The notes under the pieces: model-generated
The model's database searches: none
Told to the model about the DNA's origin: nothing
Seen by the model: only the letters and a program-made list of their open reading frames with translations
Position numbers and translations under genes: made by a program
Shown: positions 1 through 19,580 of the stretch, piece by piece
Layout: every line of letters begins with the position of its first letter
How positions within the stretch are numbered: the first letter of the stretch is position 1
Source of the DNA: an uncultured Acidimicrobiales bacterium
GTDB lineage: Bacteria; Actinomycetota; Acidimicrobiia; Acidimicrobiales; SZUA-35
DNA: 64,000 nucleotides
Assembly (NCBI GenBank): GCA_937997485.1
Contig: CALKTH010000005.1
Span: forward strand, 2,812 to 66,811
Reading direction: 5' to 3'

Positions 1-1398
1 GATCTGCTGCTTGAACGTCGGAAGGACTGAGCCTCTGGAGCCAAGCACGTTGCCGAAACGGACGGAGACGTAGGGGAGACCTGTGGTTTGTGCCATGCGA
101 GCAGTAAGACGCTCAGCGACGAGCTTTGTCGCGCCGAGAACGCTCGTGGGGTCCGCAGCCTTGTCGGTGCTGACGTTCACGAAACGGGCGACGCCGTGTG
201 CTCGAGCGGCCTCGAGCAAGTTGTTGGTGCCGAAGATGTTCGTCTTCACACCCTCCTGAGGGTGGTTCTCGAGCAGTGTCAGGTGCTTCAGCGCAGCGGT
301 ATGGAAGATCACTTCGGGCTTGCGGTCGGCGAAGATCTCGTTGATCCGCTCACCGTCTCGAATGTCGGCCACGAGGAGGTCTGGGGTGTCGAGCAGTGCC
401 TTGCCCTCGATGGAGAGCTGCACGCCGTGGAGCGCGGTTTCATCTCGGTCCAGCATCATCAGCTCGCTCGGGGCAAGGTGGAAGAGCTGACGGCAGAGCT
501 CGGAGCCGATCGATCCGCCAGCGCCGGTGACGAGCACGCGCTTCCCGGTGATGTAGTGGCTGATCGCGTCGAGATCAACGTTCACTTCTTCACGGCCCAG
601 AAGGTCAGCCTCGGTGGGTTCGCGAATGTCGCCAACATCGAGAAGTCCGAGAAGCTCGGACGTCGAAGGCAGCACTCGCACGTCGAGACCTGCCGCCTCG
701 GCGAGGTCGGAGAGTTCTCGGATGACGGAGCTGTTTGCTGAGGGGATGGCGATCAGGAACTGTTCGGCGTTGTAGCGGCGAGCGACAGCTGCGATGTCCT
801 TGCGGGTGCCCTGCACGGTCACTCCGTGATAGGTCCGGCGAGCGCGATCCGGTGAGTCGTCGAGCATGGCCACCGGGCGAAGCTCACTCCGCACGTCGAA
901 CTGCATGGACCGGATGATCTGTTCAGCGCCCAGGCCAGCGCCGAAGACGATCACGTTGGTTCGGGGCGCACCGCGGGCTTGCAGACGAAGCTGCTGCATC
1001 ACGCTCCAGATCAGACGAATGCCGAGCATGAGGAGCAGGGTGAGCGGAACAGCGGCAAGGAAGGCCAGCGTGGTGACCGGGCGGTTCAATACGAGGTAGT
1101 TGGCCAACGCCAGAAGCGGCACCACCAAGGCCCAGCCCCAGATCACCCGCACGGCGTCGAACGTCGAACCAATGCGGAACTGCTTGTCGCCCATGATGGG
1201 CAGGGCCGTTGCTGCCGTTTGCAGTAGGCCGGCCGTCGCAATCAAGAGGGCGAGTTGTACGTACTGGACGTCGCCCTCGGAGATTTGCAGGCGAATCATC
1301 GTGGCCGGGCCGAGGGCGACGGCCCACGCTCCCACGTCGAGGAGCACCAAAGCTGGGGAACGAAAACGAGTTGCCCCGTCCATCATTTTCTGCCGCAT
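1..1398 (-). CDS. CapD/PglF/WbpM-type nucleoside-diphosphate-sugar dehydratase, runs off left edge
   Basis: Not in ORF track. Manual translation gives an N-terminal TM region, VLVTGAGGSIGSELCRQ, STDKA and VSVRFGNVLGSRGSVLPTF. Confidence 0.93.
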   Translation of the reverse strand, partial: MRQKMMDGATRFRSPALVLLDVGAWAVALGPATMIRLQISEGDVQYVQLALLIATAGLLQTAATALPIMGDKQFRIGSTFDAVRVIWGWALVVPLLALANYLVLNRPVTTLAFLAAVPLTLLLMLGIRLIWSVMQQLRLQARGAPRTNVIVFGAGLGAEQIIRSMQFDVRSELRPVAMLDDSPDRARRTYHGVTVQGTRKDIAAVARRYNAEQFLIAIPSANSSVIRELSDLAEAAGLDVRVLPSTSELLGLLDVGDIREPTEADLLGREEVNVDLDAISHYITGKRVLVTGAGGSIGSELCRQLFHLAPSELMMLDRDETALHGVQLSIEGKALLDTPDLLVADIRDGERINEIFADRKPEVIFHTAALKHLTLLENHPQEGVKTNIFGTNNLLEAARAHGVARFVNVSTDKAADPTSVLGATKLVAERLTARMAQTTGLPYVSVRFGNVLGSRGSVLPTFKQQI

Positions 1399-1495
1399 GC
1401 CATACCCATCTGCCGCGAACGCGTACCGCTACACGCTCTCAAGTCCGCCCCAAGCGACTCGGCGTTTCCCTCCGCCGCGTCACCGCTTGATTGCC

Positions 1496-1600
1496 TGAAT
1501 CTAGCCCAATGTCGGACAGAACCGTTGGGGAAACCCCTAAGGGGGCACCTAGTTCCAATGGCCCTGCCGCTCGTCGCTCGAGTCGCTGCGGCTAGATTCA
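1496..1600. repeat. Perfect 11-bp inverted repeat in the divergent intergenic region
   Basis: TGAATCTAGCC (1496-1506) and GGCTAGATTCA (1590-1600), 83 bp apart. Confidence 0.7.
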
Positions 1601-1623
1601 CTGCATCGCCAAGGAGGCGCACT

Positions 1624-2613
1624 GTGAACTCGCCTGCATCTCTCGCATTTCCATCAGAGCCCATTGATCGCGCCGCCTCGATCTTCGTGGCTGGCCACCG
1701 GGGGCTCGTGGGCTCGGCGCTCATGCGCCAGCTCGAATCCGAGGGCTTCGCCAACGTCCTCACGGCCACTCGCCAGCAGCTCGATCTGCGAGACCAGGCC
1801 GCCGTCAGCGCCTGGTTCGAGGCCAACCGGCCCGAATACGTCTACCTGGTGGCCGGCACCGTGGGTGGTGTCTACGCCAACAGCACGCGGCCGGCCGAGT
1901 TCTTGTACGACAACCTGATGATCCATGGCACGGTTGTGCATTCGGCTCATCAAACCGGCACCAAGAAGCTCCTCTACCTGGGCTCCAGCTGCATCTACCC
2001 GCGGCATGCCTCTCAGCCGATCAGTGAAGATCAGCTCCTCACTGGCCCGCTCGAGCCCACGAACGAGAGCTACGCCCTGGCCAAGATCGCCGGCATCAAG
2101 CTCTGTTCCAGCTACCGGCGCCAATACGGGGCCGACTTCATCTCTGCCATGCCCACGAACCTCTACGGCCCTGGCGACAACTTCGACCTCGAGGCTTCGC
2201 ATGTCATCCCGGCGCTCATGCGCAAGTTCCACGACGCCAAGCTGGCTGGCGCCAGCGAAGTCAGCATCTGGGGCACCGGATCGGCGATGCGTGAGTTCTT
2301 GCACGTGGACGACCTCGCTCGAGCTTGCGTCTTCCTGATGGACAGCTATTCCGACGAACCCCACCTCAATGTGGGAACTGGTGAAGATCTCTCGATTCGC
2401 TCGCTGGCTGAGATGATTCGAGAGATCGTGCATCCCGAGGCCGAATTGGTGTTCGACACCTCGAAGCCGGATGGGATGCCCCGCAAAGTGCTCGACGTGT
2501 CCGCCTTGCATGACCAGGGCTGGAAGCACAGTGTCGAGCTGCGAGACGGTCTCGTCGAGACCTACCGCTGGTTCGTCGAGCATTACGCCGACGCTCGCGG
2601 AGTTCAGAACTGA
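1624..2613 (+). CDS. fcl: GDP-L-fucose synthase
   Basis: IFVAGHRGLVGSA, LGSSCIYP, YALAKIAG, MPTNLYGPGDNF, REFLHVDD; GTG start after AAGGAGG. Confidence 0.95.
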   Translation: MNSPASLAFPSEPIDRAASIFVAGHRGLVGSALMRQLESEGFANVLTATRQQLDLRDQAAVSAWFEANRPEYVYLVAGTVGGVYANSTRPAEFLYDNLMIHGTVVHSAHQTGTKKLLYLGSSCIYPRHASQPISEDQLLTGPLEPTNESYALAKIAGIKLCSSYRRQYGADFISAMPTNLYGPGDNFDLEASHVIPALMRKFHDAKLAGASEVSIWGTGSAMREFLHVDDLARACVFLMDSYSDEPHLNVGTGEDLSIRSLAEMIREIVHPEAELVFDTSKPDGMPRKVLDVSALHDQGWKHSVELRDGLVETYRWFVEHYADARGVQN

Positions 2614-2645
2614 GGTAACCAGCACCCCGGCGCTTCCAAGGGAGA

Positions 2646-3458
2646 CTAGAAGGCGCCGGGGCTACCGGTCAGCAAGTGACCCGCAGTGCGAGCCACGATC
2701 TGTACATCGCCCGAGAGTGAGCGATTGCGGATGTAGTGAAGGTCGAGCGGGATGCGCTCGTCGAAGGTCATGAGGTTGCGGCCGCTGATCTGCCAGAGGC
2801 CGGTGCAGCCGCCCTTGACTCGGGCCAGCTCCGGGCCGTGATGGCCCACCATGTCGAGTTCCTCTTCCAGCATGGGACGAGGGCCAACGATGCTCATCGT
2901 CCCGCCGATCACGTTGAACAACTGGGGGAGCTCGTCGAGGCTCGTCCGTCGGATGAAGCGACCCACACGGGTGATGCGGGGATCGTTGGTGAGCTTGCGG
3001 TTCTTCGCATACTCGGCCGCCCGCTCCGGAAACTCGGCGAAGTGCTTGGCCAGCACCTCGTCGCCGTTCGAAACCATGGAACGGAACTTCAGCATCGGAA
3101 ACACCGCGCCGCCCCTGGTGACACGGCGGTTGCGATAGATGACCGGCCCGCGGGAAGTGACAGACACGAGCACGGCAACAATCGCCATCACCGGGAGCAG
3201 CACGATCGCGGCCGGAATGGCGACGGCAAGATCGAACGCCCTCACGCTCGCTCTTGTGTGCCAGGCAACCGGGCGCACTAATGGCTGGACGGAGGCCTCG
3301 ACCTCGGCACTCGCCGGGTCCAGGACCAGCCGCAGCGCAGGGGGTCTCTCCCCGAGCACCGCTACATCATCAAGAGATCGAATTGAAGCCACGAAGGCCC
3401 TCCGCCATTTCCGCCTGAGCCGATGTCCCTCAAGGGCTCTTGGGGAGGATGAAATCAC
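2646..3458 (-). CDS. Priming sugar transferase (WbaP/ExoY-type phosphoglycosyltransferase)
   Basis: KFRSM, DPRITRVGRFIRRTSLDELPQLFNV, MSIVGPRP, TGLWQISGR; start uncertain. Confidence 0.92.
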   Translation of the reverse strand: MISSSPRALEGHRLRRKWRRAFVASIRSLDDVAVLGERPPALRLVLDPASAEVEASVQPLVRPVAWHTRASVRAFDLAVAIPAAIVLLPVMAIVAVLVSVTSRGPVIYRNRRVTRGGAVFPMLKFRSMVSNGDEVLAKHFAEFPERAAEYAKNRKLTNDPRITRVGRFIRRTSLDELPQLFNVIGGTMSIVGPRPMLEEELDMVGHHGPELARVKGGCTGLWQISGRNLMTFDERIPLDLHYIRNRSLSGDVQIVARTAGHLLTGSPGAF

Positions 3459-3567
3459 GGTTCGCGGTGCTTGTCGACGCTCAAGAGCGCAATGGGGGGT
3501 TGTCCCCGAGACCCCCTATCCGCTGAGGGGAGATCCCCCAGGTTTCGGGGTGCAAAAGGAGGTTGTT

Positions 3568-3633
3568 GTGGGTGGATTTTCCCAAGGCGACGTGCCCAAT
3601 GGCACTTGGCGTGCGTCCCCTGAGGACAACTAG
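3568..3633 (+). CDS. Candidate 21-aa micro-ORF (MGGFSQGDVPNGTWRASPEDN)
   Basis: AAGGAGG at 3556-3562, GTG at 3568, TAG at 3631-3633; 27 nt upstream of the PqqD gene. No homology evidence. Confidence 0.25.
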   Translation: MGGFSQGDVPNGTWRASPEDN

Positions 3634-3660
3634 TCTCGCAATTGACAGTTGGAGGGAAAC

Positions 3661-3933
3661 ATGGTGGATCTGCAGAAGACATACGCCATCTCGGGCGACG
3701 CTCTGGCACGGAAGGTCGGTGACGAACTCGTCATCATGGACCTCGCTGGTGAGGAGTACTTCTCGCTCAATCAGGCCGGGCGGAAAGTGTGGGAGGGGCT
3801 GTCGCAACAGCAGACGCTGTCTGTGGTTGTCGACGCCTTGGTCGAGCAGTTCGACGTCTCACGAGAGACCGCAGCCCACGACGTGCTCGCCGTAACGCGA
3901 GAGTTGCTCAGCGCCGGCCTTGTCGTCGAGTGA
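3661..3933 (+). CDS. PqqD-family protein / RiPP recognition element (lasso B1-like)
   Basis: 90 aa; RKVGDELVIMD...YFSLNQAGRKVWEGL...LVEQFDVSRETAAHDV...LLSAGLV; SD GGAGGG. Confidence 0.92.
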   Translation: MVDLQKTYAISGDALARKVGDELVIMDLAGEEYFSLNQAGRKVWEGLSQQQTLSVVVDALVEQFDVSRETAAHDVLAVTRELLSAGLVVE

Positions 3934-3949
3934 CCTCAGGTCAACTCGT

Positions 3950-5092
3950 CTACAGCTTCGCCTGACGCGCTCGTTGCACCGCGGCTGTGACAGCCCGCGT
4001 CACCTTGGCCGGGTCAGCGTCAGGGAACGCCTCTTTCGCCAGGGCGCTGATCGACGCAATCGATCCGCCTCGATCGTGCTCGTCGAGCACCAAGCGTTCG
4101 AGGCGACCGCGCTCGCCTGTCGGCTCCACGCGCTGCGCGTCGACCTCACGCACGTCGTCGGTGCTGAGGAACCTCCCGAGGAACGTCGAGTGGGTCTGCG
4201 AATACAGACGTTCGCCTCCGGCTGACGTGACAGCGATCTTCCACGTGGCCGTGTACGTCGTGGGAGCGATGCGGGAGGAGAACTGGACCTGGTCTCCCTC
4301 GTCCACCGCTACGGAGCGGCTGAGGGGAAACGACGTTTGCCACCGCCGAAGCATCCGGTCCGGATCGGCAGGATCATTCGTCATGGCGACACCGGATGCC
4401 ATCTGCGCTCGGAAGTAGCCAACGACGGCGTGGAGTTCGCCAGCTTTCTCGATCGTCATCTCTGCTGCGGTGTCGAACGGTGCGTCGCTCGAGGCTGCAA
4501 CCCGGCCGGCCGCAACCCCGGAGCCCAGGAGCGCCTCATCGTCCAGATGCACCGTATGAAGCAGGTTCGCTCCATGCTGCGCTGCGGGCGAGAGGTCGAA
4601 TCCGAGCGGTGCTGAACGCCAGAACTCGATGTTCTCACTGACCTCGGGAAGTGTGACCGGGGCTGCGAACAACTCGAACTCGGCCGGCACGGTGACGACG
4701 TCGGGAGTGCCGAACCTGCGAACCGCATCGGCGTAGTACTGGTTCACGCCAGCGTCATAGGCAAAGCCGCCGATCTGATCACCGACGATGACATCCACCT
4801 TCTCCGGAAGGTTCACCGAGGTTGAGAACCCGTGGAGGGGAACGATCACGTCTCCCAACCCGTTCGCCTCGATCAGTTCCTCGATGAGGCCAATGATCGA
4901 GCCACCGTCGACCGAGTACACGCGCTTGGCGCCGGCCTTCGCTGCAAGGAAGCCGAGCAGGCACGTGCCTGATCCGAGGTCGAGCACCACCGAGTCCTTG
5001 GTGATGACCTTCGCAAACGCCGCTTTGTAGGCCTCGACCTTCGGGCCGTCATCCCAGTACGAGCGGTGTTCCTTGAGTTCACTGACCGTCAT
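3950..5092 (-). CDS. SAM-dependent methyltransferase with protein-arginine-methyltransferase (PRMT)-like architecture
   Basis: VLDLGSGT, AAKAGAKRVYSVD, LPEKVDVIVGDQIG, ELHAVVGYFRAQ and RRWQTSF are collinear with PRMT motifs I, post-I, II, double-E loop, beta-barrel and THW loop. Confidence 0.82.
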   Translation of the reverse strand: MTVSELKEHRSYWDDGPKVEAYKAAFAKVITKDSVVLDLGSGTCLLGFLAAKAGAKRVYSVDGGSIIGLIEELIEANGLGDVIVPLHGFSTSVNLPEKVDVIVGDQIGGFAYDAGVNQYYADAVRRFGTPDVVTVPAEFELFAAPVTLPEVSENIEFWRSAPLGFDLSPAAQHGANLLHTVHLDDEALLGSGVAAGRVAASSDAPFDTAAEMTIEKAGELHAVVGYFRAQMASGVAMTNDPADPDRMLRRWQTSFPLSRSVAVDEGDQVQFSSRIAPTTYTATWKIAVTSAGGERLYSQTHSTFLGRFLSTDDVREVDAQRVEPTGERGRLERLVLDEHDRGGSIASISALAKEAFPDADPAKVTRAVTAAVQRARQAKL

Positions 5093-5098
5093 GGTTCC

Positions 5099-6817
5099 TC
5101 ACTTGCTGAGTTGTGCTCGATCGCCGCTGGGGGCGAGATGGAGTGTGGTGGTTGGCGTCAGCGCCCCGTCGTTCGATTCGTGATGTGTGACCAGCACCGA
5201 GGCCCGCTGCTCGGAGGGCTCGAGCAGAAGACTCCGGATTGCTTCTTGGCTCGCTGCGTCTTGCATCGACGTGGGCTCGTCCAGAATGAGCAACGCCGAA
5301 TGCTGCTGATAGAGCGCCCGGGCAAGCGTGAGCCGTTGCCACTGCCCGCTGCTGAATTCGCGCCCACCCTCGAACTGGCGCCCCAAGCGCTGCGAGCTTC
5401 CGTCAGTTGTCGTCTCGATGAAGGCATCGGCGGTCGATCTTCTGAGCGCATCCGTGACGCGCTCCAGGTCCGGCACCTGGTCCTCGGCCCCAATGGCCCG
5501 ATCGAGAGGGATCTCGAAACGGGTGATGTCTTGGAACTGGGCACTGGTCATCTCTCGCAGCCGCTTTCGTGCGACATCACCGGTGTCGCCGTTGTCGAAG
5601 ACGATTCGGCCGGTCGTGGGCTCCAAGAGGCCCGAGAGCAACGACATCAACGTGCTCTTGCCGGAGCCGTTCGGACCCCGGACGACCATGAGCTCCCCCG
5701 GTCGCAGCGCGAATGAAACGGGCTCCAAGGCGTTGACAGTCGTCCCTGGATAGCGGAACGACACGTCCTCAAACCGCAGCTCTACAAAGGATCCGCCGCG
5801 CTCCTGGCCGGTCGCATGGGCGAAGAGATCTCCCTCAACTTCGGCTGTCCACGTCAGGTAGTTGTCCAGATGCATCCCCGCTTCTCGCAGATCCACCGAG
5901 CTGCTGGTCAACGCACGGAGGCGGCTGAAGAGCTGGAGCAGGGCGACGACAACCACCCCGCCCTCGGCCAAGGAGATCGAACCGTTCGAGATCGCCCGCA
6001 GGCCCCAGGCTGTTGCCCCTGCGAGCACCACGATGAGGAAGAGATCGCTGAGCATCGCGAGACCAACACGACGCTGAGCCTGAGAGCGGATGCCGTTCAA
6101 GATCTGCGTTGCCAAGCGTTCGTGATCGGGGAACAGCGATTGGCCCAGGCGGTAGAGGCGGGCCTCCTTCGCCGATCGGCGGGAAGAGACGATGGAGATG
6201 ATCTGGTTCCGTTCACGGCGGAGCGCTGTCTGCTCTGCGTAAATCCCGTAGCGAATGCGGGCGATTCTGCTGAGCGTCCAAGCCGAGGGAGCGACCGCAG
6301 CGACGCCGACAAGGACGATCGCCGGGCTGATCGACCACAACACGGCGCCGATCGCTGCGGCCGAGACGATCGAGCGGACGGCCTCGAACAGTCCCCGTGT
6401 CAGATACCAGGTGCGGCCGGAGACCTCCTCATGGGCCCGACGCATGTTGTCGTGGAACTCTGCGTCGTCGAACTCGGTCAACTCAGCAGCGAGGGCTCGC
6501 CGGGCGATTCCGCGATCAACTTCGAAGGTCAGTTTCGTTGAGAGAAGCCAGACCAGCTCGGTGGAAACGGCCGAGGCAGCTCGGGAGAAAAGAAGCAGCC
6601 CCGCAACGCCGAGCGCAGAAGGGAGCGCATCGAGGGCGTCGGCCGCCTGTGCCTCGTTGCCGGTGAGCACATCGAGGACACGCTTCAGCAAGAAGAGCTG
6701 GGCCACCGTCGCCACAACGTTGGAAATCTGCAGGATGAGGCCCCAGGTCAGCTCACGCGGCGCGGCATCGGCCGTCAACTTGATGGCAGCTCTCAGCGTT
6801 CGCATCAACGCGTTCAT
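5099..6817 (-). CDS. ABC exporter, fused permease/ATPase (peptide-exporter-like)
   Basis: Multiple TM helices, Walker A GPNGSGKST, signature FSSGQWQR, Walker B LLILDE. Confidence 0.92.
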   Translation of the reverse strand: MNALMRTLRAAIKLTADAAPRELTWGLILQISNVVATVAQLFLLKRVLDVLTGNEAQAADALDALPSALGVAGLLLFSRAASAVSTELVWLLSTKLTFEVDRGIARRALAAELTEFDDAEFHDNMRRAHEEVSGRTWYLTRGLFEAVRSIVSAAAIGAVLWSISPAIVLVGVAAVAPSAWTLSRIARIRYGIYAEQTALRRERNQIISIVSSRRSAKEARLYRLGQSLFPDHERLATQILNGIRSQAQRRVGLAMLSDLFLIVVLAGATAWGLRAISNGSISLAEGGVVVVALLQLFSRLRALTSSSVDLREAGMHLDNYLTWTAEVEGDLFAHATGQERGGSFVELRFEDVSFRYPGTTVNALEPVSFALRPGELMVVRGPNGSGKSTLMSLLSGLLEPTTGRIVFDNGDTGDVARKRLREMTSAQFQDITRFEIPLDRAIGAEDQVPDLERVTDALRRSTADAFIETTTDGSSQRLGRQFEGGREFSSGQWQRLTLARALYQQHSALLILDEPTSMQDAASQEAIRSLLLEPSEQRASVLVTHHESNDGALTPTTTLHLAPSGDRAQLSK

Positions 6818-6848
6818 CGACCCTCCGCCCGTGACGCCATGGGACAGA

Positions 6849-7352
6849 GTGAACTACTCTCCGCGGGTTCGCAAGCACATCGTGAAGGCAGCATTCGTGG
6901 CAAGACGCTTTTCGTTGCCCATGTGGGCCTATTTCAGTGCCAGCCTCGTGCTCTTGCCGGTCGTCCGTGTCGCCATTGCGTTCGTCGGTGTTCAGAGAAC
7001 AGCGGGTTGGGTGAAGGCGCTCTCGCGATTCTCGGTCGGCCCCTTTGGCGATCAGATCTTGGTGTCGACGCAACTTCACCGCGTCGTCGATGTCGCCGGC
7101 CGTAGAGGTCCGATCAAGGCGACGTGTGTGCCGCAGAGTCTCGTTCTGTGGTGGCTTCTCGCTGTTCGAGGGGTTGAGGCGTCGGTCCGAATCGGATCGA
7201 TTGGAGATGCCGCTTCCTTCACAGCCCACGCCTGGGTCGAGGTTGACGGCAGTGCATTCGGTCGAGGAGAGCACGAACCGTTCGGTGCGTTCGACCTCAT
7301 GAGTCGAACCCACACGCCCGGTCAAGCCCTCAAGGTCGACGTTGATGGCTGA
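6849..7352 (+). CDS. Lasso peptide biosynthesis B2-type cysteine protease (transglutaminase-like)
   Basis: TCVPQSLVLWWLL...VRIG...FTAHAWVEVDG with Cys/His/acidic residues; start could also be 6882 or 6921. Confidence 0.88.
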   Translation: MNYSPRVRKHIVKAAFVARRFSLPMWAYFSASLVLLPVVRVAIAFVGVQRTAGWVKALSRFSVGPFGDQILVSTQLHRVVDVAGRRGPIKATCVPQSLVLWWLLAVRGVEASVRIGSIGDAASFTAHAWVEVDGSAFGRGEHEPFGAFDLMSRTHTPGQALKVDVDG

Positions 7353-8319
7353 GCGCAAGCTGGACGGTGCGACCGGTGCGACCGGTGCCCAAGACCCGCT
7401 CGCCCCGCTCCTGAGCGTTGCTGTCCCGCAGGAGGTCGAGGCTCACCTCCCGTTTGAGTTTGATGCCGGTGCGGTACCGGACATCCAGGTCGAACTCGTC
7501 GATGAGCTCCGGATGCCGATTGTCGAGCCGTACTACGACGGCTACGTCACCTACGGGTCGGTTGTCGACGGCTTCATACCCATGCATGCCGAGGACGAGC
7601 ACTTCGAGATAGCGCTCGATGGCAGCATCGCCCGACTCCCTCGGCCCAGCGACGGTCCCCTCCGCGTTCGGACGATCAGCTGTCTCCTCAACTTCGTGTT
7701 GCCGATGGCGTTCAACTTGGCGGGCCAGACGATTTATCACGGTGCCCTGGTCCGTCGCCCGGACGGCAGTTCGCTGCTTCTCGTTGGCGGCTCGGGAGCA
7801 GGAAAGTCCACGCTCTCACTGGCCGCTTCCCGAAGTCCTGGGTGGAGCGTGGTCTCCGACGATCTCGTGCTGATCCGGCGCAATGAAAGCGGCCGATTCT
7901 TCGGCGGGCCCCTCTATCGAACGGGGATCCGTGTCGTTGACGACTCACTCGATGCAGTTCTCGGCCCCGAAAGCGGAGCAGGTCCAAACGAGGCGCACTG
8001 GAAGAACTTTGTCGACCCGTCTCACGAGGGACTTCGGTTCGACTTCGGCTTCCATCCCATTGATGCCGTCGTCCTCCTCCGGCGTTTCTCGGACACGGCG
8101 CACTCGATCGATGCTCAGCGCAGTTCGCCGGGCGCGGCGCTGACCACGCTGCTCGGGCAGCTGATGCAGGCACCGGCACTCGGTCGACTGGCCGAGACAA
8201 CTCGTTTCAACGTGACGGCCGACATTCTCGAGCAGGCCCCGTGTTGGGATCTCGCGTATCCGAGCGACTTCACCAGGATTCCCGAGGTGCTCGAAGCCCT
8301 TCAGGCGCTCGCCGAGTAA
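7345..8319 (+). CDS. HPr-kinase-like kinase (lasso-peptide-kinase type)
   Basis: YHGALV, Walker A GGSGAGKST, VVSDD; ATG overlaps B2 stop (ATGGCTGA). Confidence 0.85.
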   Translation: MAERKLDGATGATGAQDPLAPLLSVAVPQEVEAHLPFEFDAGAVPDIQVELVDELRMPIVEPYYDGYVTYGSVVDGFIPMHAEDEHFEIALDGSIARLPRPSDGPLRVRTISCLLNFVLPMAFNLAGQTIYHGALVRRPDGSSLLLVGGSGAGKSTLSLAASRSPGWSVVSDDLVLIRRNESGRFFGGPLYRTGIRVVDDSLDAVLGPESGAGPNEAHWKNFVDPSHEGLRFDFGFHPIDAVVLLRRFSDTAHSIDAQRSSPGAALTTLLGQLMQAPALGRLAETTRFNVTADILEQAPCWDLAYPSDFTRIPEVLEALQALAE

Positions 8320-8375
8320 CTGCGGCAGCCAAGTTGCGAGTACCGATCCCCGGGTGCGGTGATGCGTCGGAATGA

Positions 8376-8494
8376 CAGTGCGGTGGGCGGGTTCGTACGG
8401 CCGCCCGGCGCACGAACCCCAGCCCCGTCGTCTCATGAGGTGACACCTCTCACGACGCGCCGGGTGTCTCAAAAGGACACACTCCCACCGCCTG
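8376..8494. ncRNA. Candidate structured RNA (four-way junction with possible pseudoknot)
   Basis: GCGGTGGG/CCCACCGC closing stem, three internal hairpins, extra CCCGGCGC/GCGCCGGG complementarity. No family recognised. Confidence 0.35.
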
Positions 8495-8658
8495 CTTCTC
8501 GCTGTATCGACAAGAAGTTCCACCAACTTGAATCATTTCTTTCAGAAGTTTCCGCGAGCTCAATGTGAGGCGGTGTCGTAGGCGATTCGGCCCTGTTCAG
8601 CGCGACCAGACGCTTTCTACGGTGGTTGGGCACTGTCGGAGGGATCGAGGGGACCGCG

Positions 8659-8859
8659 TTGAAGCTGAATCTTTGGGGCGAGTCGGGGGACGACAGAAGC
8701 TCGGACGAGCCCGAAACGACGACGAAGGCCGAGCGGATCATCCTGTGGCTGAATGAGGACGCAAAGAAGCCGGCTGCGCGTGAGGAGCAGGTCGTTCGCC
8801 TGTTCGTCGAGCCAACACCGGAGAAACCCCGGCCCTCGCTCGGACTCTTCTCCATCTAG
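8659..8859 (+). CDS. Small hypothetical protein (~66 aa)
   Basis: TTG start 6 nt after GAGGGG; fills the intergenic gap. Confidence 0.45.
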   Translation: MKLNLWGESGDDRSSDEPETTTKAERIILWLNEDAKKPAAREEQVVRLFVEPTPEKPRPSLGLFSI

Positions 8860-8943
8860 CGACGCTCCAGCGAGCACCTCCGTCAATTGTGGCGTGCGCT
8901 GCCATCGCCCCTGAGCCAACGGGCACATCACTACGCTGCCCAC

Positions 8944-10227
8944 GTGTCCGAACGCCGCCGACGACGAGCCGTAGGCAAGCTCCCCGCCCGGGCCGTGTCG
9001 CGCATTCCGTTCCGGCCGCTCGGCGGTTTCTTCGGCCCCGATCGGGCTGACGCCCGTCTCAGCCTCGCCGCCCTCGCTTTCAGTGCCATCACCTCCGTGG
9101 TGGCCGGACTCACGCTGGCCTCTCAGCAGGATGAGCTCCGGGCGCTCCCCGGCCTGCTGTTGTTCGTGCCTCCGGCCATCGGTCTGCGAGGCAATGTCTT
9201 CGGTCCCTTGGGCAGCCGCCTCTCGACTGCCATTCAGACCGGACAGTTCGCGTGGAGCTGGCGAATCGACTCACTCCTCGGCCAGAACCTCGTGGCCGTG
9301 ACCGTCACCTCGCTTGCCGCTGGGCTCGGTTTGGCCGGGGCGGCGGAAGTGCTGGCGTTGGTGATCGACGCCGAAGGTGGGGTGATCCCCATCGGCGTGT
9401 CGGACTTCATCGTGGTCTCGATCATCGGCGGCCTGCTCGCCTCCGTCGTGGTGCTGGCCGCCACGCTCGTGCTGACCACGGCCTCAGTCCGTTTCGATTG
9501 GGACTTGGACAACGTGACCGCCCCCATGGTCACCGCTACGGGCGACCTCATCACGCTGCCGGCCCTCGTCCTCTCCACCGTGCTGCTCAGGCGAGGCGAC
9601 CTCACGGTTGTGCTCTCCGCCATCTGCGCGATCGTCACCATCGTGTCGCTTGGCTTGGTGGTGCGCTCCGGTCTCGCTCTGGCCAAGCGGATCGTGTTCG
9701 AGTCCCTGCCGGTGCTCCTCGTGGCCGGCGTGCTCAGCCTGTTCGCGGGCGTGGCCGTGGAACGGTTCGAGAGCGTGCTCAGCTGGGAGCTGCTCGTTCT
9801 CCTTCCCGGGTATCTCGGCACGGCCGGCGCCCTGGGCGGCATCCTCGCCAACCGCCTCAGCACCCGAGTGCACCTCGGCCTGATCGAGGCGTCGCTGATT
9901 CCGAGGGGTGCGGCCCGAACCGACATGGGGATCACTGTCGGCCTGGCCATGCCCATCTTCTTCCTGCTGGCCCTCGTCGCCGAAGGCGCGGCCTACGTCG
10001 CCAATCAGTCCAGCCCCGGCACCTTGCTGATCGTGGCTGTGTCGGTCACGGGCGGCCTGGTCGCCACCCTCTTCGCTCTCGCCATCGCGTACTACGGCAC
10101 GCTCGTGGTGGTCCGCTTCGGCTTCGACCCGGACAACGTCGGCATCCCCATGGTCACCGCATCGCTCGATGTGGTTGGCGCGCTCACGCTCGTTGGTGCG
10201 GTGCTGGTGTGGGGCGCGGGAGCATGA
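8944..10227 (+). CDS. MgtE/SLC41-type divalent cation transporter (duplicated membrane domain)
   Basis: GLRGNVFGPLGSRLST, DLDNVTAPMVTATGD, DPDNVGIPMVTASLD. Confidence 0.85.
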   Translation: MSERRRRRAVGKLPARAVSRIPFRPLGGFFGPDRADARLSLAALAFSAITSVVAGLTLASQQDELRALPGLLLFVPPAIGLRGNVFGPLGSRLSTAIQTGQFAWSWRIDSLLGQNLVAVTVTSLAAGLGLAGAAEVLALVIDAEGGVIPIGVSDFIVVSIIGGLLASVVVLAATLVLTTASVRFDWDLDNVTAPMVTATGDLITLPALVLSTVLLRRGDLTVVLSAICAIVTIVSLGLVVRSGLALAKRIVFESLPVLLVAGVLSLFAGVAVERFESVLSWELLVLLPGYLGTAGALGGILANRLSTRVHLGLIEASLIPRGAARTDMGITVGLAMPIFFLLALVAEGAAYVANQSSPGTLLIVAVSVTGGLVATLFALAIAYYGTLVVVRFGFDPDNVGIPMVTASLDVVGALTLVGAVLVWGAGA

Positions 10228-10292
10228 AAAGGACAGATGAGATCGCAGGAGAGTTGTGCCATGATTCGCCAACGAGGAGTGACTGGTAGCTG

Positions 10293-11510
10293 ATGGAATC
10301 CCGAAATCTGCGGGAGATGCTCGCCGAGGCGAAGGACACGAGCGAGTTGATGGTCGATCTGGCCTATGCCGCGCTCTACTTCGACGATCCCGACATGGCC
10401 GACGAGGTCGAGGAGCTCGAGCAGGACATCTCCGAACTCGTCCACCAGATGCGCACGCTGTGTGTCATTGCCGTTCGCCATCCGAAGGAGGCAGGCGAGA
10501 TCTCCTCGGTGCTGCAAGTGATCTCTGCCGTGGAACGCATCGGCAACGATGCGGTCGACATCGCCAAGATCGTGCAGCGACGCCTGGGCATTCCCCGGGA
10601 ACTCGTCGTCGATCTGTCCTCGGCCGAGGAAGTGTCGCACCGCGTGGTGGTGCACGAGGGCTCACACTTCGCAAACCGCCCGCTCAGCTCCTTCGAGCTG
10701 CCGATCGTGACCGGCATGCGGATCATGGCCATCCGTCGGGAGCGGCAGTGGCTCATCGACCCGGGCGGCAATGACATCTTGAACCCTGGCGACATTCTCT
10801 TCCTCCGAGGATCACCCGACGGCATCGCTCGGCTACGGGAGCTCTCTGGCGCTCCCGAGTGGGTGCCACCGTCCATGGGCGACGCCGCGCCGCTCACCGA
10901 TCTCGGCCGAGCGATTGACGTGCTGGTCGAGATGAAGAACCTCAGCGAGGTGGCGGTGGGCTTGGCCTACTCGGCCCTTGTCTACCGGGATCGCTCACTC
11001 GCCGCCGAGGTTCGCCACCTCGAAGATCGCCTCGATGAGATGAACCACCGGCTCGAGCACTGGGTCTTGCGAGCCGCCGCTCAGGGCGGACAGGAGGAGC
11101 AGCTCCGCGGGCTCCTGCACCTTGGTGCTGCGGCGGAAGATCTCGGCGATCAGGCCCAGTCGATGGTGTGGCTCATCGAGAAGTCCAACGACCTGCACCC
11201 CGTGCTCGGCATTGCGCTGGGCGACACCGACGACATCGTGGTGCGGGTGCCGGTGGGGGAGGGGTCCGAGGTGGCGGGCCGCTCACTCGCACAGATCGAG
11301 TTTCCTGTCGAGCCTGGGTTCAACGTGCTAGCCATCGAGCGAGACGGTCGCTACGCGTACCGCCCTCGTCGTCACGTGGTGCTCGAAGCCGGCGACCAGA
11401 TTCTGGCCAACGGACCCGAGGAGGGTCACGAAGCGCTGGCAGAAATGCTCGGTTGGAGGCTCGTCGAAGACGACGATGGCGAGATCGAGTTAGAGCCGCT
11501 CAACGGCTGA
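10293..11510 (+). CDS. Tandem PhoU + TrkA-C domain protein
   Basis: Two repeats (KDTSELMVDLAYAAL / MKNLSEVAVGLAYSAL), each followed by a TrkA-C-like segment (IMAIRRE, VLAIERD). Confidence 0.85.
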   Translation: MESRNLREMLAEAKDTSELMVDLAYAALYFDDPDMADEVEELEQDISELVHQMRTLCVIAVRHPKEAGEISSVLQVISAVERIGNDAVDIAKIVQRRLGIPRELVVDLSSAEEVSHRVVVHEGSHFANRPLSSFELPIVTGMRIMAIRRERQWLIDPGGNDILNPGDILFLRGSPDGIARLRELSGAPEWVPPSMGDAAPLTDLGRAIDVLVEMKNLSEVAVGLAYSALVYRDRSLAAEVRHLEDRLDEMNHRLEHWVLRAAAQGGQEEQLRGLLHLGAAAEDLGDQAQSMVWLIEKSNDLHPVLGIALGDTDDIVVRVPVGEGSEVAGRSLAQIEFPVEPGFNVLAIERDGRYAYRPRRHVVLEAGDQILANGPEEGHEALAEMLGWRLVEDDDGEIELEPLNG

Positions 11511-12679
11511 TCGTCGCTGCTCCGAAATGCTGTCGGGCTTCGGGCGACGCTCACCGCACTGCCGATGGCGAGTGCCAGCACGAACCACGCCAGGCCCGGT
11601 TCCCTCATCACGGACTCGGTCAGCCCATTGATCATGATGGCAACGACGATCGCATCGCGACCCGCCGAGGGGCGTCCTCTGGCTGCGGCCCAGTAGGTGA
11701 AGGGAAAAGCGAGGAACGCAATAGCTGCCGGCCACCCTCCGCTGAGGGCGAACTGCAGGAAGGCATTGTGGCCAGACGTCGCAAACCAATTCAGGCGGCC
11801 GGATTCGAGGGCCGGTTCGAGAGCCACGGTGGTGCTATCGGCTCCAACGCCGGTCAACGGCTTGGCGTTGATGAGATCCAGCGAGAGATTCCACAGGGTG
11901 GTGCGACCGGTCACGGTCACGATCTCCTGCGCATCGCCGCTGCGGGCAACGGCATCGCCCACCACATCACCGGCGCCGGACACGACGATCCCTGCGGCGG
12001 CGAAGACGGCGCCAATCACGGCAAGCCCCGGAGCGGCCCGGCCGATCAGCGGGCGAGCGGCAACGATCAAGCCCACGCTGGCAGCCAGCGCTGCCGTCCG
12101 TGAATCAGAGACGACGATGCACACCGGCCCGACGGCCAACAGCAGCAGAGCGGTTCGCCGATGCTGGGACAGGATGCCTACGGCGAGAATTACTCCGAGC
12201 GCCGCCGCCATGCCGAATTCGTTGGGGTGCGCGCTCAGACCTTGAATCCGCCCATCACCGGCACCGCCTCCAAGCACGGGCTGCATCGCAAGGCCGAGGG
12301 GCAGCACGATGGCCAGCCCTCTGGCTGCGGCCAGCCTGGTCGTCGGCCAGCCGAGCGATGCTCCCAACCACACGCCGGCAATGAAGACGCACGCGAGCGC
12401 CACGGCGACGACCACATCGTTGATGCCGAGCATGCCCAAGGGGCTCACGAACACGATCCAGGCCAGCGCGAGCGTGAGGGGAAGCGCCGGAGCCTGAACG
12501 AGGGCAGCGCGAACCCGAGGGGAGAGGAGCAGTGCCAGCCCACCGGGCGTAGAGAGCAGAACGAAAACGGACCAGCCCGCGTAGTCGGTCGAACCCGACG
12601 AGATGAGCCCGACCCGAGAGGGTTCGATGGCGATCGCGACGACGATGACCGCAGTCACGATCTGCAGACGACGGATCAC
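11426..12679 (-). CDS. Wzy polymerase / O-antigen ligase family protein
   Basis: Many TM helices, GRIQGLSAHPNEFG, SDSRTA, TGRTTLW, GHNAFLQ. Confidence 0.85.
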   Translation of the reverse strand: MIRRLQIVTAVIVVAIAIEPSRVGLISSGSTDYAGWSVFVLLSTPGGLALLLSPRVRAALVQAPALPLTLALAWIVFVSPLGMLGINDVVVAVALACVFIAGVWLGASLGWPTTRLAAARGLAIVLPLGLAMQPVLGGGAGDGRIQGLSAHPNEFGMAAALGVILAVGILSQHRRTALLLLAVGPVCIVVSDSRTAALAASVGLIVAARPLIGRAAPGLAVIGAVFAAAGIVVSGAGDVVGDAVARSGDAQEIVTVTGRTTLWNLSLDLINAKPLTGVGADSTTVALEPALESGRLNWFATSGHNAFLQFALSGGWPAAIAFLAFPFTYWAAARGRPSAGRDAIVVAIMINGLTESVMREPGLAWFVLALAIGSAVSVARSPTAFRSSDDQPLSGSNSISPSSSSTSLQPSISASAS

Positions 12680-13908
12680 GAGCCGAGAAGCACGGGAATC
12701 CGATGGCTGACCTGCAGGTCACGCAGTCGCTTCAAGGCCGCTCTGGTCGCTCGGCGACTGCTCTTCTTCTTGTCGACAAGGAGAACGACAGCATCAGCCG
12801 CTCCTGCGGCCGCCGCAGCCCCGGAATCGGCGACACTCCCCGCGTCGACGACTCGTTCGCCAAAGGCGGGCCGAAGCTGCTCGGTCACCTCGCTTGCTCG
12901 GCCGGCCGACTGGAGCGACATCACGGCGATCGTGCCTTCGACGTGTCTGGACGCGTTCGTCACCGCCGTGGCCACGTCAGCGACCGCGAGGGGGCCGTTG
13001 CCCTCACCCACCGCAATCCACGGGGCAGACAATGAGGCGAGCTCGCTGTGGTGAACGCTCCGGACCTTGCCAAACCAGCGCTCCAGTGCTGGGGCCATGG
13101 CCAGAGCACCAAGGACGCCGAGCAACGCTCCGAGGATCGGCGCCGAGCGGAGCGCCCCGCCGTCACCCAAGCCGACCGTGCCCACGTTCTGGGCCAGTTC
13201 GAGGGCGGGCTCATGGGTTTCGAGTTCAGCGTCGAGGTTGGCCACTTCGACGGAGCGGGCTCGCACGGTGACAAGTGCGGCTTCGATGTTGCTCTCCAAC
13301 ACGTCGACCTCGATGCGCAACGTCTGTCGCTCCTCACCCTCGATGGCATCGATGCGAGTGTTGAGATCAGCAATCTCGGCTTCCCAGCCGGTGATCTGCT
13401 CCTCCAGCGGGCCGATGAGCCCGGCGAGTTCGCCTCGCTCTTCCTGGATGGAATCGAGCACGGCTTGGTCGACCTGGGCGACCGAAGCGACAGCGATCGC
13501 CTCGGCTGCAGGCTTCACGAGGTCGGCCGGCCCACGCGTGGTGATGGTGATGAGGCGGCCGCCATCCAGTTCGGTCGCCACGGAGATCTCTGACGGATCG
13601 ATTCCCGCCTCGGTCAGGGCCGCGGCTCGGGTCTCGTCATCGGTGGCCAAGCCCGCGGTGCGGGTCAAGATCGATTCGAAGAGCGGCCACTCAGCGGCTT
13701 CGGTCAGGCCGACAACGGCGCGGGCCTCCGCCTCGCCTCCGTCACCGAGCAGCGCATCGGCCTGCGAAGCAACAAGCCATCCGACGGCAGCGAAGACAAC
13801 GGCCAACCAGGCCCAGCGCATCCACGAGCGCACAAGGTCGAAGACGTCATCCATCTCGCCGTGATTCGCCCCGACATAGGGGTCTCCACCATTGCTCCGC
13901 TCGGCCAT
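12676..13908 (-). CDS. Wzz/Wzc-like chain-length regulator with degenerate kinase-like tail
   Basis: TM - coiled coil - TM layout; C-terminal ADAVVLLV...RAALKRL; no Walker A GKS/T. Confidence 0.7.
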   Translation of the reverse strand: MAERSNGGDPYVGANHGEMDDVFDLVRSWMRWAWLAVVFAAVGWLVASQADALLGDGGEAEARAVVGLTEAAEWPLFESILTRTAGLATDDETRAAALTEAGIDPSEISVATELDGGRLITITTRGPADLVKPAAEAIAVASVAQVDQAVLDSIQEERGELAGLIGPLEEQITGWEAEIADLNTRIDAIEGEERQTLRIEVDVLESNIEAALVTVRARSVEVANLDAELETHEPALELAQNVGTVGLGDGGALRSAPILGALLGVLGALAMAPALERWFGKVRSVHHSELASLSAPWIAVGEGNGPLAVADVATAVTNASRHVEGTIAVMSLQSAGRASEVTEQLRPAFGERVVDAGSVADSGAAAAAGAADAVVLLVDKKKSSRRATRAALKRLRDLQVSHRIPVLLGS

Positions 13909-13993
13909 CTGCCCTCCCAAGGTCGATGAGCCTATTCCGAACCAAGGGGCGGCGGGATAGGTTGAATCCCGCGTGGTGAGGGCTTTGGTAGGG

Positions 13994-15943: not shown

Positions 15944-17121
15944 GTCGCGACGACTGCACCACGCCACGAGTGCTGCGGGATCAAGACAAGATTCAGTGCG
16001 ATGTTGAGCAGCGCCGAGGCCAGCACTGCTCTGGCTCGATCCACGAAGTGTCCCGTGGTTGTGAGGACGTCGCCGAGCAGGCTCTGGACCGCCCGGAACA
16101 TCGGGAGCGCGCTGAGGGCCATGATGATCGGCGCCGCATCGGCGAAGCGGTCGCCCGCGATGATCTCGACACCTCGCGCGCCCAGGAGCAGGAACGTCGT
16201 CATCACCACTGCATAGGAGACGAGGGGGAGGGCCAGCTTCTTGGCGTAGGCGCGAGAGTGGGCGATTCCTTGCTCGCCCCGGCGGAAGAACTCCGGGGCG
16301 ACGGTGTGCAGAAAGGCGTATGCCGGCAGGAACGCGTATTGCACGAGGCGGGCACCGGTTGCGTAGAGGCCGTTGTCGGCTTCGAACCCGGCTCGGAGCA
16401 GCAGGGTCTGGTCGATATCGCTGGACAGAGCCTGTGAGGAATGCCCAACGCCGACCGCGGCGCCGTCGCGGGCCGAGGCCAGCCAACGAGTGGGGTGAAG
16501 CTGGGCCGGTCCCGCGATCGATCGCATCGTGGCGAGCGAGATGATGGCGGTGATTATCGACGCCGCGCCGATGGCGGCAACAAGAAAGAGCAGCTGGGTC
16601 GAGTCCGACACGGTCTCGTCAGCCCGGAGGGCGGCGTAGCTGACGATGGCGATCATTCGGAGACCAGCAGCCGTCAGGACGACGAGGGCCGAGGTGACGA
16701 ACCGGTTGAGGGCTCGCAACGCACGGCTTGCCGTGTCCGAACTGCCGAAGGCCAGGAACTCGCCTGCTGCGAGCACAACAACAACCAGTGTGGACTGGGC
16801 AGGCAGAACGACGAGGGCGATCAGGCCAACGGCGAAGGTGGCGATCACGCCGGCAATCGCCAGTGCGCTCAGCGCGTCACCCCACGCCTCGGGCGCATCG
16901 TCGGCGTTACGGGCGATGCGCATGGTGACGATGTCGCCCTGACCGAGACTGGCCAATGAGGGAAACACCGCGACAAGGCCGACGATGCCGGCGTAGATGC
17001 CGTATCCCGTGGGCTCGAGGGTCCGAAGAAGAACGGTGAACGTTACGAGCGAGAGGACGGCGCGGCCAGCGAAGGCGACGAGGGTCCAGCTGGTGTTCTG
17101 AACAATCCTTCCCCCTCGCAC
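15868..17121 (-). CDS. Wzx-type polysaccharide flippase (MOP family)
   Basis: IVQNTSWTL, YGIYA, IDQTLL, GLYATGARL, LNIALNLVLIP...GAVVAT. Confidence 0.88.
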   Translation of the reverse strand: MRGGRIVQNTSWTLVAFAGRAVLSLVTFTVLLRTLEPTGYGIYAGIVGLVAVFPSLASLGQGDIVTMRIARNADDAPEAWGDALSALAIAGVIATFAVGLIALVVLPAQSTLVVVVLAAGEFLAFGSSDTASRALRALNRFVTSALVVLTAAGLRMIAIVSYAALRADETVSDSTQLLFLVAAIGAASIITAIISLATMRSIAGPAQLHPTRWLASARDGAAVGVGHSSQALSSDIDQTLLLRAGFEADNGLYATGARLVQYAFLPAYAFLHTVAPEFFRRGEQGIAHSRAYAKKLALPLVSYAVVMTTFLLLGARGVEIIAGDRFADAAPIIMALSALPMFRAVQSLLGDVLTTTGHFVDRARAVLASALLNIALNLVLIPQHSWRGAVVATYAAELAMFGILAWSVWRRSRATTY

Positions 17122-18251: not shown

Positions 18252-18253
18252 GC

Positions 18254-19213: not shown

Positions 19214-19354
19214 CTGCGCACGTTAGGCCGACGATCCAGCCGAGACCACGCAGACGTTGGTGAAGAGCACTCGACCCACGCCACTCGTCTCGGATAGATC
19301 ACCCCCTCACCCGCCGAACCACCCCCACCCGCGCCCCTTTCCACCCACTCTTTT

Positions 19355-19580
19355 CTGTGGGTGCCTGACCCTCACCATCACTGCGCTCCGTCTTGCTGTG
19401 GGTGCCTGACCCTCACCATCACTGATCCGGCCGTTGCCTGACGCCAGGTCGGCGTTTCGCGCAGTCACCTTCACAAAACGCCGACCTCGACTCACCCCCG
19501 GCCGCGGCTGTGGGTGCCTGACCCCCACCGTCACTCTGCTGTGGGTGCCTTCTGTGGGTGCCTGACCCTCACTATCACTG
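19355..19580. repeat. Cluster of ~29-bp direct repeats CTGTGGGTGCCTGACCCTCACCATCACTG with an internal 12-bp inverted repeat
   Basis: Copies at 19355, 19396, 19508, 19539 (partial) and 19552; AGGTCGGCGTTT/AAACGCCGACCT at 19446-19487. Confidence 0.9.

Follow-up and report, generated by a model that had tools for sequence, protein, structure and literature searches.

A five-gene lasso peptide module with a PRMT-fold methyltransferase in an Acidimicrobiales genome: the probable accessory half of a split kinase-type pathway

The stretch of DNA that was analyzed here, called the window, comprises 64,000 nucleotides of contig CALKTH010000005.1 (C5) of an uncultured Acidimicrobiales bacterium. At positions 3649-8319 it contains a module of five genes, all intact in Pfam and NCBIfam scans, that encode a PqqD-like RiPP recognition element (RRE; B1), a methyltransferase with the fold of the protein arginine methyltransferases (PRMTs), an ATP-binding cassette (ABC) exporter, a leader peptidase (B2) and an HprK-like kinase. 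Judging from sequence, we consider it probable (roughly 0.78) that this module forms one half, the accessory one, of a class II, split-B lasso peptide pathway of the paeninodin-like (kinase) type, and that its cyclase and two precursors are encoded on another contig of the same assembly, C98. Both halves are located in polysaccharide-synthesis loci of a species-specific, variable region. That the cyclase looked absent has two causes: its pathway is divided over two genomic places, and a contig ends within the cyclase gene. The assembly contains 4.86 Mb in 158 contigs and is 92.8% complete, with an estimated contamination of 0.97%. Coordinates that are given without a contig or locus name are window positions.

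Cyclase and precursors on a second contig

Six-frame profile searches of the whole assembly with related cyclases and precursors gave no match on C5. A relaxed search for remnants of either gene in window 1-20000 found none (best E-values of 0.76 and 0.11, in a small search space), and there is no precursor-like open reading frame (ORF) in or beside the module. The original prediction, which was made from the window alone and recognized neither a cyclase nor a precursor in its 64 kb, was right on this point. In the whole assembly the Asn_synthase model (PF00733) gave three short, weak matches, on C33, C25 and C49, that cover 66-85 of 354 model positions. The related cyclases match none of these sites except a short C25 stretch, and a stretch of C16 matches only the amidotransferase end of the cyclase profile. 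The matches on C33, C25 and C49 were rejected as lasso cyclase candidates and are taken for other enzymes of the same superfamily.

It was found that C98 carries two precursor genes in tandem, at C98:23813-24049(-) (E 4e-7) and C98:24205-24459(-) (E 1e-6), among 106,406 six-frame segments of the whole assembly. Their products are 77% identical to each other and the genes are located 180 bases from the contig end. The leaders have Y-17, P-14, M/L-12, G-8 and T-2, followed by a core that starts GNISSNDVDG, with D7 and D9, as is expected of lasso precursors. The spacing of Y-17, P-14 and T-2 agrees with PMC10368454 (this paper, PMC8498205 and PMC13381572 are cited here and below from parts of their text). 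Directly upstream of the precursors an ORF of 58 codons runs off the end of C98. It ranked 9th of the 106,406 segments with a profile of cyclase C-termini, and all of its 58 residues are identical (100%) to the C-terminus of P0122, a 588 amino acid PF00733 protein that carries the SGGLDSS signature. The top NCBIfam matches of P0122 are NF033561, the albusnodin/ikarugamycin-family macrolactam cyclase (114 bits), and NF033535, the lasso cyclase (76 bits), both under their cut-offs; against a profile of 11 cyclases from methyltransferase-linked loci it scores 191 bits. At the level of the genome, an Asn-synthase-like cyclase is found outside the window, with only its last 58 codons in the assembly.

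The members of the P0122 90% cluster are located on contigs of 11233, 29570 and 2286 bases, the shortest of which carries a 550 amino acid member, and variants of the DegT gene that neighbors the precursors on C98 are found on contigs of the same 11233 and 29570 bases as the full cyclase. The end of C98 is extended by 474, 424 and 1835 bases by contigs of three runs from one marine-metagenome study. The smallest contig in the bin has 2506 bases, so a piece of 2286 bases would drop out. From the 58-codon stub, the contig extensions and the size cut-off of the bin (~2.5 kb) it appears that the organism does have the cyclase gene and that its loss from the assembly is technical. Two scans of metagenome contigs, one with the organism's own precursors and one with P0122, found no relative. 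The case illustrates how technical causes, here the splitting of the locus, the end of a contig and a minimum size in binning, can make a cluster seem incomplete, and how the missing gene can be recovered from a stub of 58 codons.

These results bear directly on the two readings of the original prediction. The precursors and cyclase 3' end on C98, together with the assembly's sole RRE, B2 and lasso-type kinase in the window, support its second reading, in which the cyclase and precursor of a lasso pathway are encoded elsewhere. It had named a cyclase and a canonical precursor just outside the window as evidence that would speak against its preferred reading; both were found, on another contig rather than just outside. 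It had also suggested a search of the genome, especially left of position 1: lasso precursors and the end of a cyclase were found on C98 and none left of position 1, and the nucleotidyltransferase PF14907 was not found.

The methyltransferase and its relatives

The methyltransferase gave 138 homologs at E<=0.001 among the candidates scored, and the best of them, besides the window's own, is 46% identical. From a scan of one genome per species, with one round of profile building, 58 loci of the methyltransferase family were obtained. Among these, PqqD was found in 24, B2 in 19, an HprK-like kinase in 25, an Asn-synthase-like cyclase candidate (570-680 amino acids) in 23 and a canonical precursor in 17. 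All eight cyclase candidates that were sent to Pfam (8/8) have Asn_synthase and glutamine amidotransferase (GATase) domains, and NTP_transf_5 was also seen in the loci. The small ORFs between cyclase and methyltransferase in the relatives are textbook lasso precursors. The original prediction would have been weakened by methyltransferase homologs that do not co-occur with RRE, B2 or HprK; this is not the case, since the co-occurrence in the 58 loci is strong.

In a quick maximum-likelihood tree (the careful search is unfinished) the window methyltransferase groups in a clade of 15 rows with an SH-aLRT support of 100. The other 14 members all (14/14) have an Asn-synthase-like lasso cyclase within 4 kb, and a canonical YxxPxL...T(-2) precursor is found at 13 of these 14 loci. 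Homologs without lasso neighbors form separate clades. In two nearly complete genomes of the same order PqqD, cyclase, precursor, methyltransferase and HprK-like kinase stand in a row. The methyltransferase is seen with kinase-type lasso clusters in Acidobacteriota, Rokubacteria, Myxococcota, Pseudomonadota, Actinomycetota and others, and because it co-occurs with cyclases in clade and locus, the family is a regular passenger of such clusters. In 17 related loci the methyltransferase and kinase genes are directly adjacent, which suggests that the two steps are coupled.

All 22 precursors of the relatives and the two of the organism itself (24/24) fit the pattern [YW]xxPx[LIVM]xxxGxxxxx[TIV]x, and most cores have Asp or Glu at position 7-10. 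The precursors of seven loci (L005-L008, L014, L015 and L032; 7 of the 22 from relatives) end in Cys-Leu, often behind a Met-rich stretch, and this end may be a further modification or recognition site. Six of them are from Acidobacteriota or Rokubacteria and one is from a deltaproteobacterial metagenome-assembled genome (MAG); the own-genome precursors do not have Cys-Leu.

Several single loci were also observed. In L079 (G327:C22:167300-187200) two cyclases and two different precursors flank one methyltransferase-HprK pair, with two PqqD genes, one B2, an ABC exporter and NTP_transf_5, behind heparinase-like, UDP-glucose dehydrogenase and glycosyltransferase genes. The organism itself has a PRMT-fold paralog at C42:48558-49664(-), of 369 codons, which belongs to a clade without lasso neighbors together with Ilumatobacter, Microthrixaceae and Acidimicrobiales MAGs. 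In a Nitrospinota MAG (L056:6077-15629) the genes for PqqD, HprK, methyltransferase and NTP_transf_5 adjoin Wza-like (Poly_export/SLBB) and Wzz/BY-kinase genes, and no cyclase, B2 or recognizable precursor was found there in the 7.4 kb upstream and 10 kb downstream that were covered. L029 (Planctomycetia) has only PqqD, HprK and methyltransferase and L020 (Nostocaceae) only HprK and methyltransferase, both without cyclase and B2. It may be that these three loci carry out the same chemistry on a linear peptide, with no cyclase involved.

A possible option for the window is that it encodes such a system itself, in which a linear peptide would be cleaved, phosphorylated, methylated and exported in connection with the surface glycan, analogous to the linear polyphosphorylated peptides (LPPs) of Bacillota. 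A distinct cyclase-less system of this kind was the reading that the original prediction preferred. Clusters without a cyclase, made of a signal peptidase (SpI), an RRE, HprK, an NTP transferase and an exporter resembling MsbA, have been described in polysaccharide-rich loci (PMC13381572), and L056, L029 and L020 also lack cyclase and B2. Yet the window methyltransferase does not group with these three; it is placed in the clade in which all 14 nearest relatives adjoin a cyclase. Moreover, SpI is not seen in the window, which has the lasso-specific B2 peptidase instead (the archaeal-type signal peptidase homologs of the genome map to C37), a precursor-like ORF is missing from the module and its sides, and the only precursor-like ORFs of the genome are canonical lasso precursors directly behind a cyclase gene. 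We regard the cyclase-independent option as very improbable.

Do the two halves belong together?

The core genes do not form one contiguous cluster: B1, B2, kinase, methyltransferase and exporter are on C5, and C98 carries the cyclase and precursors. In the assembly there is no PqqD, B2 or lasso-type kinase besides those of C5, and no precursor or cyclase fragment besides those of C98. Neither the methyltransferase (0/6 at E<1e-20) nor the cyclase (0/6 at E<=1e-10) is found in other species of the same genus. On both sides of the module (window 1674-3223 and 8991-11500) the DNA of all five of these congeners that were searched (5/5) is 68-78% identical to that of the window, and in one of them the slot between these flanks is filled by other glycan genes. 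A SET-domain protein and a PEBP-like protein are encoded at L091:9047-9592(-) (G003, from the same genus), within the polysaccharide slot that a congener has in place of the lasso module.

Another explanation for the split is a binning artefact, by which C98 would come from another organism. The assembly is a binned one of 158 contigs, and C98 has the fifth-lowest GC content of all of them, with 0.58-0.62 in its last 12 kb compared to a genome mean of 0.641. Still, the first 12 kb of C98 have a typical GC content of 0.64-0.66. The left end of the contig contains 200 bases that are 98% identical to C49, as well as short repeat units that it shares with more than 20 other contigs of the bin, including C5. 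The estimated contamination is low (0.97%), and the C5 module is likewise absent from the congeners, which fits one acquired system. Of all the options considered here, a foreign origin of C98 is the least probable.

It may also be that the window genes are an orphan or decaying half-cluster. According to this hypothesis the C98 cyclase and precursors have their own B1 and B2 upstream, and the module in the window is what remains of a second cluster, from which the cyclase and precursor were lost following a rearrangement. The gene order indeed looks rearranged: in the window PqqD is read to the right, methyltransferase and ABC to the left and B2 and HprK again to the right, whereas in relatives such as L010 PqqD, methyltransferase, HprK, B2 and cyclase are all read in one direction and are followed by the precursor and ABC in the other. 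In addition, a stretch of some 3.3 kb upstream of the cyclase is unread on the 29570-base contig, and the assembly is not complete (92.8%). A decaying cluster does not fit with five intact genes and with the conserved catalytic residues of kinase and B2, nor with window 1-20000 being free of any cyclase or precursor remnant. No second PqqD, B2 or kinase is found anywhere in the assembly. In the relatives the methyltransferase and kinase share a cluster with the cyclase, yet neither of them is found downstream of the C98 precursors. An orphan half-cluster is therefore an improbable explanation, if a better one than a binning artefact.

Several points weigh against one pathway that is divided between C5 and C98. 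In the assembly no contig overlaps the right end of C98 or the left end of C5; in three assemblies the methyltransferase and ABC genes are on different contigs from the cyclase. The unread DNA upstream of the cyclase might hold a second RRE and B2, by which the C98 part would be self-sufficient, and at 92.8% completeness the statement that the window holds the only copy is provisional. P0122 and the cyclases of the relatives score under the curated lasso-cyclase cut-offs of NCBIfam, and the nucleotidyltransferase PF14907, which is common in this type of cluster, was not found in the assembly. The own-genome cores have no Arg or Lys, which speaks against a classical PRMT reaction on the core. 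Finally, the pathway is known here from genes alone. Exact look-ups of further proteins did not provide a link: the class I methyltransferase at the left end of C5 was found only on contigs of 87246 and 3331 bases, and three proteins with a TTG start, one further precursor and one protein with an ATG start had no match.

The five genes of the module

The first gene, at 3649..3933(+), encodes B1, a discrete PqqD-like RRE of 94 amino acids from a TTG at 3649 or 90 amino acids from an ATG at 3661 (PF05402, 60.3 bits, cut-off 23.4); the 90 amino acid form is the one that was recovered by an exact protein look-up. In NCBIfam, B1 scores best with NF033536 and NF033530, the models of lasso PqqD chaperones (45-46 bits, under their cut-offs of 80 and 70). 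The second gene, at 3950..5092(-), encodes the PRMT-fold S-adenosylmethionine (SAM)-dependent methyltransferase of 380 amino acids, a putative lasso tailoring enzyme with an extra C-terminal three-helix domain. It matches PF22528 (PRMT_C, 29.4 bits, cut-off 27), the oligomerization subdomain of PRMTs, and also, weakly, PrmA. The third gene, at 5099..6817(-), encodes D, an MsbA-like half-size ABC exporter of 572 amino acids (ABC_tran, 87.5 bits, and ABC_membrane). Its NCBIfam matches are CydD, MsbA and type I secretion exporters, every one of them under its cut-off, and homologous exporters are present in the related loci L009, L010, L016 and L079.

B2, the transglutaminase-like lasso leader peptidase, is encoded at about 6849..7352(+) (NF033537 lasso_biosyn_B2, 61 bits, cut-off 33; PF13471, 55.8 bits). 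Its start is uncertain, as GTG at 6849, 6882 or 6897, TTG at 6915 and ATG at 6921 can all serve. In the alignment the conserved Cys91 and His125 are kept (residue 1 at 6855). The last gene, at 7342/7345..8319(+), encodes K, an HprK-like lasso precursor kinase of 325 amino acids. It matches Hpr_kinase_C with 22.3 bits, below the Pfam cut-off, and its top NCBIfam match, TIGR04352 HprK_rel_A (33.9 bits, cut-off 200), places it outside that equivalog. Its residues H133, G149, G152, G154, K155, S156, D173 and D174 are conserved among 18 aligned sequences and fit the H-G-G-G-K-S-D-D motif of lasso kinases, which was shown to be essential in them (PMC10368454).

The methyltransferase and ABC genes are on the same strand with a gap of 6 bp (from 5092 to 5099). 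The kinase gene overlaps the end of B2 by 8 bp if it starts at the ATG at 7345, or by 11 bp from the TTG at 7342, and the ABC and B2 genes are divergent. The coordinates bear out the original prediction of five contiguous genes with the 6-bp gap, the 8-bp overlap and the divergent pairs. It had placed the module at 3568-8319, of which the end is correct; the start is too far to the left, as 3568 is 81-93 bp upstream of the PqqD start.

Fold and chemistry of the methyltransferase

The AlphaFold model of the methyltransferase, which has a pLDDT of 93.3, shows the extra C-terminal domain of three helices. The top Foldseek matches of the model are CARM1, PRMT6, PRMT2, PRMT8 and PRMT1 (E ~1e-26, TM-score 0.65-0.80), and the family profile matches PRMT6 from the PDB with an E-value of 2.2e-63 over profile positions 2-278. 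The SAM-binding GxGxG motif is kept, as an invariant LDLG.G, and the two-domain PRMT fold is present. In type I PRMTs the double-E loop provides two Glu residues that hold the guanidinium group, and a THW loop is a further feature. The alignment with PRMT6 indicates that in the window protein the Glu pair of the double-E loop is replaced by Asp, at positions that are weakly conserved in the family, and that the THW positions are not kept but read R-R-W or otherwise. The own-genome cores contain no Arg or Lys; the leaders contain several Arg residues, and when the 24 precursors are compared, an Arg is conserved at no position. It is unlikely that the enzyme methylates an arginine of the peptide in the classical way, because the double-E and THW loops are altered, the cores are without Arg and Lys and there is no conserved Arg. 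If the acceptor is indeed not an arginine, the known chemistry of lasso peptides would be widened, and so would the range of substrates on which the PRMT fold acts in bacteria.

The C-terminal domain shows a weak likeness to the helical part of PqqD (hhalign against the PqqD profile, probability 58%, E 9.8e-5, 45 columns). Only 3 of 39 C-terminal segments reach E<=0.01 with the PqqD profile, the window's own has 0.48, and its model contains three helices and no beta-sheet. The predicted complex of the methyltransferase and precursor A has a score of 0.00; control runs were not made, and this result is evidence neither way.

Proposed pathway and comparison to known systems

Based on what is known of these families, B1 would bind the leader of the precursor. 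While the leader is still attached, the HprK-like kinase would phosphorylate a Ser or Thr of the core and the PRMT-fold enzyme would add one or more methyl groups from SAM. B2 would then cut after T(-2)-x, the cyclase would link Gly1 to Asp7 or Asp9, and the ABC exporter would secrete the peptide. It was shown that lasso kinases act on precursors that bear a leader and phosphorylate the C-terminal Ser or Ser3, and that in the bsf system B1 stimulates the kinase (PMC10368454, PMC8498205).

The clusters of paeninodin, pseudomycoidin and Bradymonas bsf are the closest known systems, with a discrete B1, B2, an Asn-synthase-like cyclase, an HprK-like kinase with H-G-G-GKS-DD, an ABC exporter and a YxxPxL...T(-2) leader. 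In the present system, unlike in these, the genes occupy two separate places in the genome, no nucleotidyltransferase turned up in the assembly, and the host is a high-GC bacterium of a class whose relatives are labelled Acidimicrobiia. Another difference is the PRMT-fold methyltransferase, which belongs to the set here and is not mentioned for these clusters in the parts of PMC8498205 and PMC10368454 that are cited.

The tailoring enzyme StspM, a lassomycin-type C-terminal O-methyltransferase, is related to protein isoaspartate methyltransferases. It resembles the window enzyme in being a SAM-dependent tailoring enzyme of a lasso cluster, and it acts on the linear precursor (PMC8498205). The window enzyme differs from it by a two-domain type I PRMT fold with a C-terminal helical domain. 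With the eukaryotic type I enzymes PRMT1/2/3/4/6/8 the window enzyme shares the Rossmann SAM domain, the beta-barrel and the GxGxG motif. Unlike them, it has neither the double-E Glu residues nor THW, it carries the extra three-helix domain, and its partner peptides have no conserved Arg.

The LPP clusters of Bacillota are similar in combining an RRE, an HprK-like kinase and an MsbA-like exporter in polysaccharide-rich loci, with no cyclase in the immediate set (PMC13381572). Their defining genes are those for an archaeal-type signal peptidase and for an NTP transferase, whereas the window has B2 and neither of those, and their leader, YxxPxVLxHQxIxFETxxS (PMC13381572), differs from the lasso form of the own-genome precursors. 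Among the genes scanned in window 1-34754 there is no signal peptidase. In the assembly, TIGR02228 (archaeal-type signal peptidase I) has matches on C37, C4 and C9. Only the two on C37 are above the cut-off, at C37:74561-74932 and C37:78752-79096 (72 and 69 bits); they are within open frames of 1096 and 583 codons and are unrelated to the window.

In the full-text literature we found no paper that appears to describe a PRMT-fold methyltransferase in lasso clusters, with subscription papers, among them the original RODEO and paeninodin reports, not covered by this search. In the main text of PMC13381572 the word 'methyltransferase' is absent, and its supplementary tables, which may list co-occurring domains, are not covered. 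The conserved PRMT-fold tailoring methyltransferase looks to be the one new feature of what is otherwise the split helper half of a known type of pathway. As an enzyme that travels together with kinase-type lasso clusters it can be singled out for natural-product work.

One can go further and suggest that the PRMT-fold enzyme installs a new lasso modification together with the HprK-like kinase. That such clusters recur in loci of the capsule or O-antigen-like kind, in Acidimicrobiia, Nitrospinota and Bacilli alike, would then reflect a phosphorylated peptide that is coupled to the surface polysaccharide or regulates it. We hold this proposal only tentatively and consider it rather doubtful. 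Possible chemistries in this proposal are the methyl-esterification of phosphoserine or the side-chain methylation of Asn or Asp in the Gly/Ser/Asn/Asp-rich core, and cyclase-less sets such as L056 would be the linear form of the same chemistry.

Polysaccharide genes and other observations around the two halves

On its left side the module is flanked by genes for CapD, an NAD-epimerase and a Bac_transf priming transferase. On its right side MgtE (8887-10227) and a PhoU/TrkA_C protein (10293-11510) come first, followed by Wzy, an unknown gene, a double GT2, Wzx and a second Wzy. The module was predicted to sit between the priming transferase/capD and wzy/wzx; this is correct for the left side, and on the right MgtE and the PhoU/TrkA_C protein precede Wzy. 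To the left of the window, the remaining 2.8 kb of C5 encode a class I methyltransferase, a WecA-like transferase and a membrane protein of which only the end is present; a cyclase is not among them. The glycan genes between the left end of C5 and the PqqD gene take up at least 6.4 kb. Behind the precursors on C98 come DegT, Bac_transf, a sulfotransferase, a FemAB/GNAT protein, a formyltransferase, a GT1-sulfotransferase fusion and Wzy.

Three of the four annotated loci of the same class are embedded in glycan genes (L079, L080 and L010, not L016). In a search with 30 glycan seed proteins, the lasso-linked loci contained 17 glycan-like ORFs in 427 kb, with at least one in 11 of 26 loci, and the other methyltransferase loci contained 4 in 507 kb, with at least one in 3 of 32. 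This search is biased, since 3 of the 17 ORFs are L010's own seeds, the seeds favor this class and the two sets differ in taxonomy, and the excess of glycan genes near lasso-linked loci is a weak trend. In Bacilli, paeninodin-like lasso clusters were found inside capsular polysaccharide loci and are co-expressed with an exopolysaccharide gene (PMC13381572, 2026). Behind the suggested tie to surface-glycan synthesis there is a real, recurring co-localization, which may have a functional meaning; it is not universal, and for Bacilli it is already in print (PMC13381572). With the present loci, the location of kinase-type lasso clusters among polysaccharide genes, reported for Bacilli, is extended to a distant phylum.

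A few further elements were observed near the two halves. Near the precursors, C98 (L063) carries a Sulfotransfer_3 protein at 7950-9035(-) and a sulfotransferase-GT4/GT1 fusion at 2157-5081(+); sulfotransferase genes are mentioned at the start of some Firmicutes lasso clusters (PMC8498205). Between the kinase and MgtE genes, an ORF of 77 amino acids at 8626-8859(+) (96 codons from stop to stop) has a gene-like codon bias and no Pfam or NCBIfam match. It was ruled out as a precursor, with no leader motif, no match to the precursor profile and no homolog in the related loci or the own genome. The stretch 8320-8990 is absent from the congeners. No RNA family was found in window 1-20000 at E<=1. 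A repeat unit of ~28-37 bases occurs in small tandem groups at C5:22166-22391 (window ~19355-19580), at C98:128-216 and on more than 20 other contigs, and may be an element similar to repetitive extragenic palindromes (REP) or miniature inverted-repeat transposable elements (MITE). Lastly, C5 ends in the same 141 bases with which C97 begins; the two contigs probably adjoin, and the length of the overlap suggests an assembly word size of 141.

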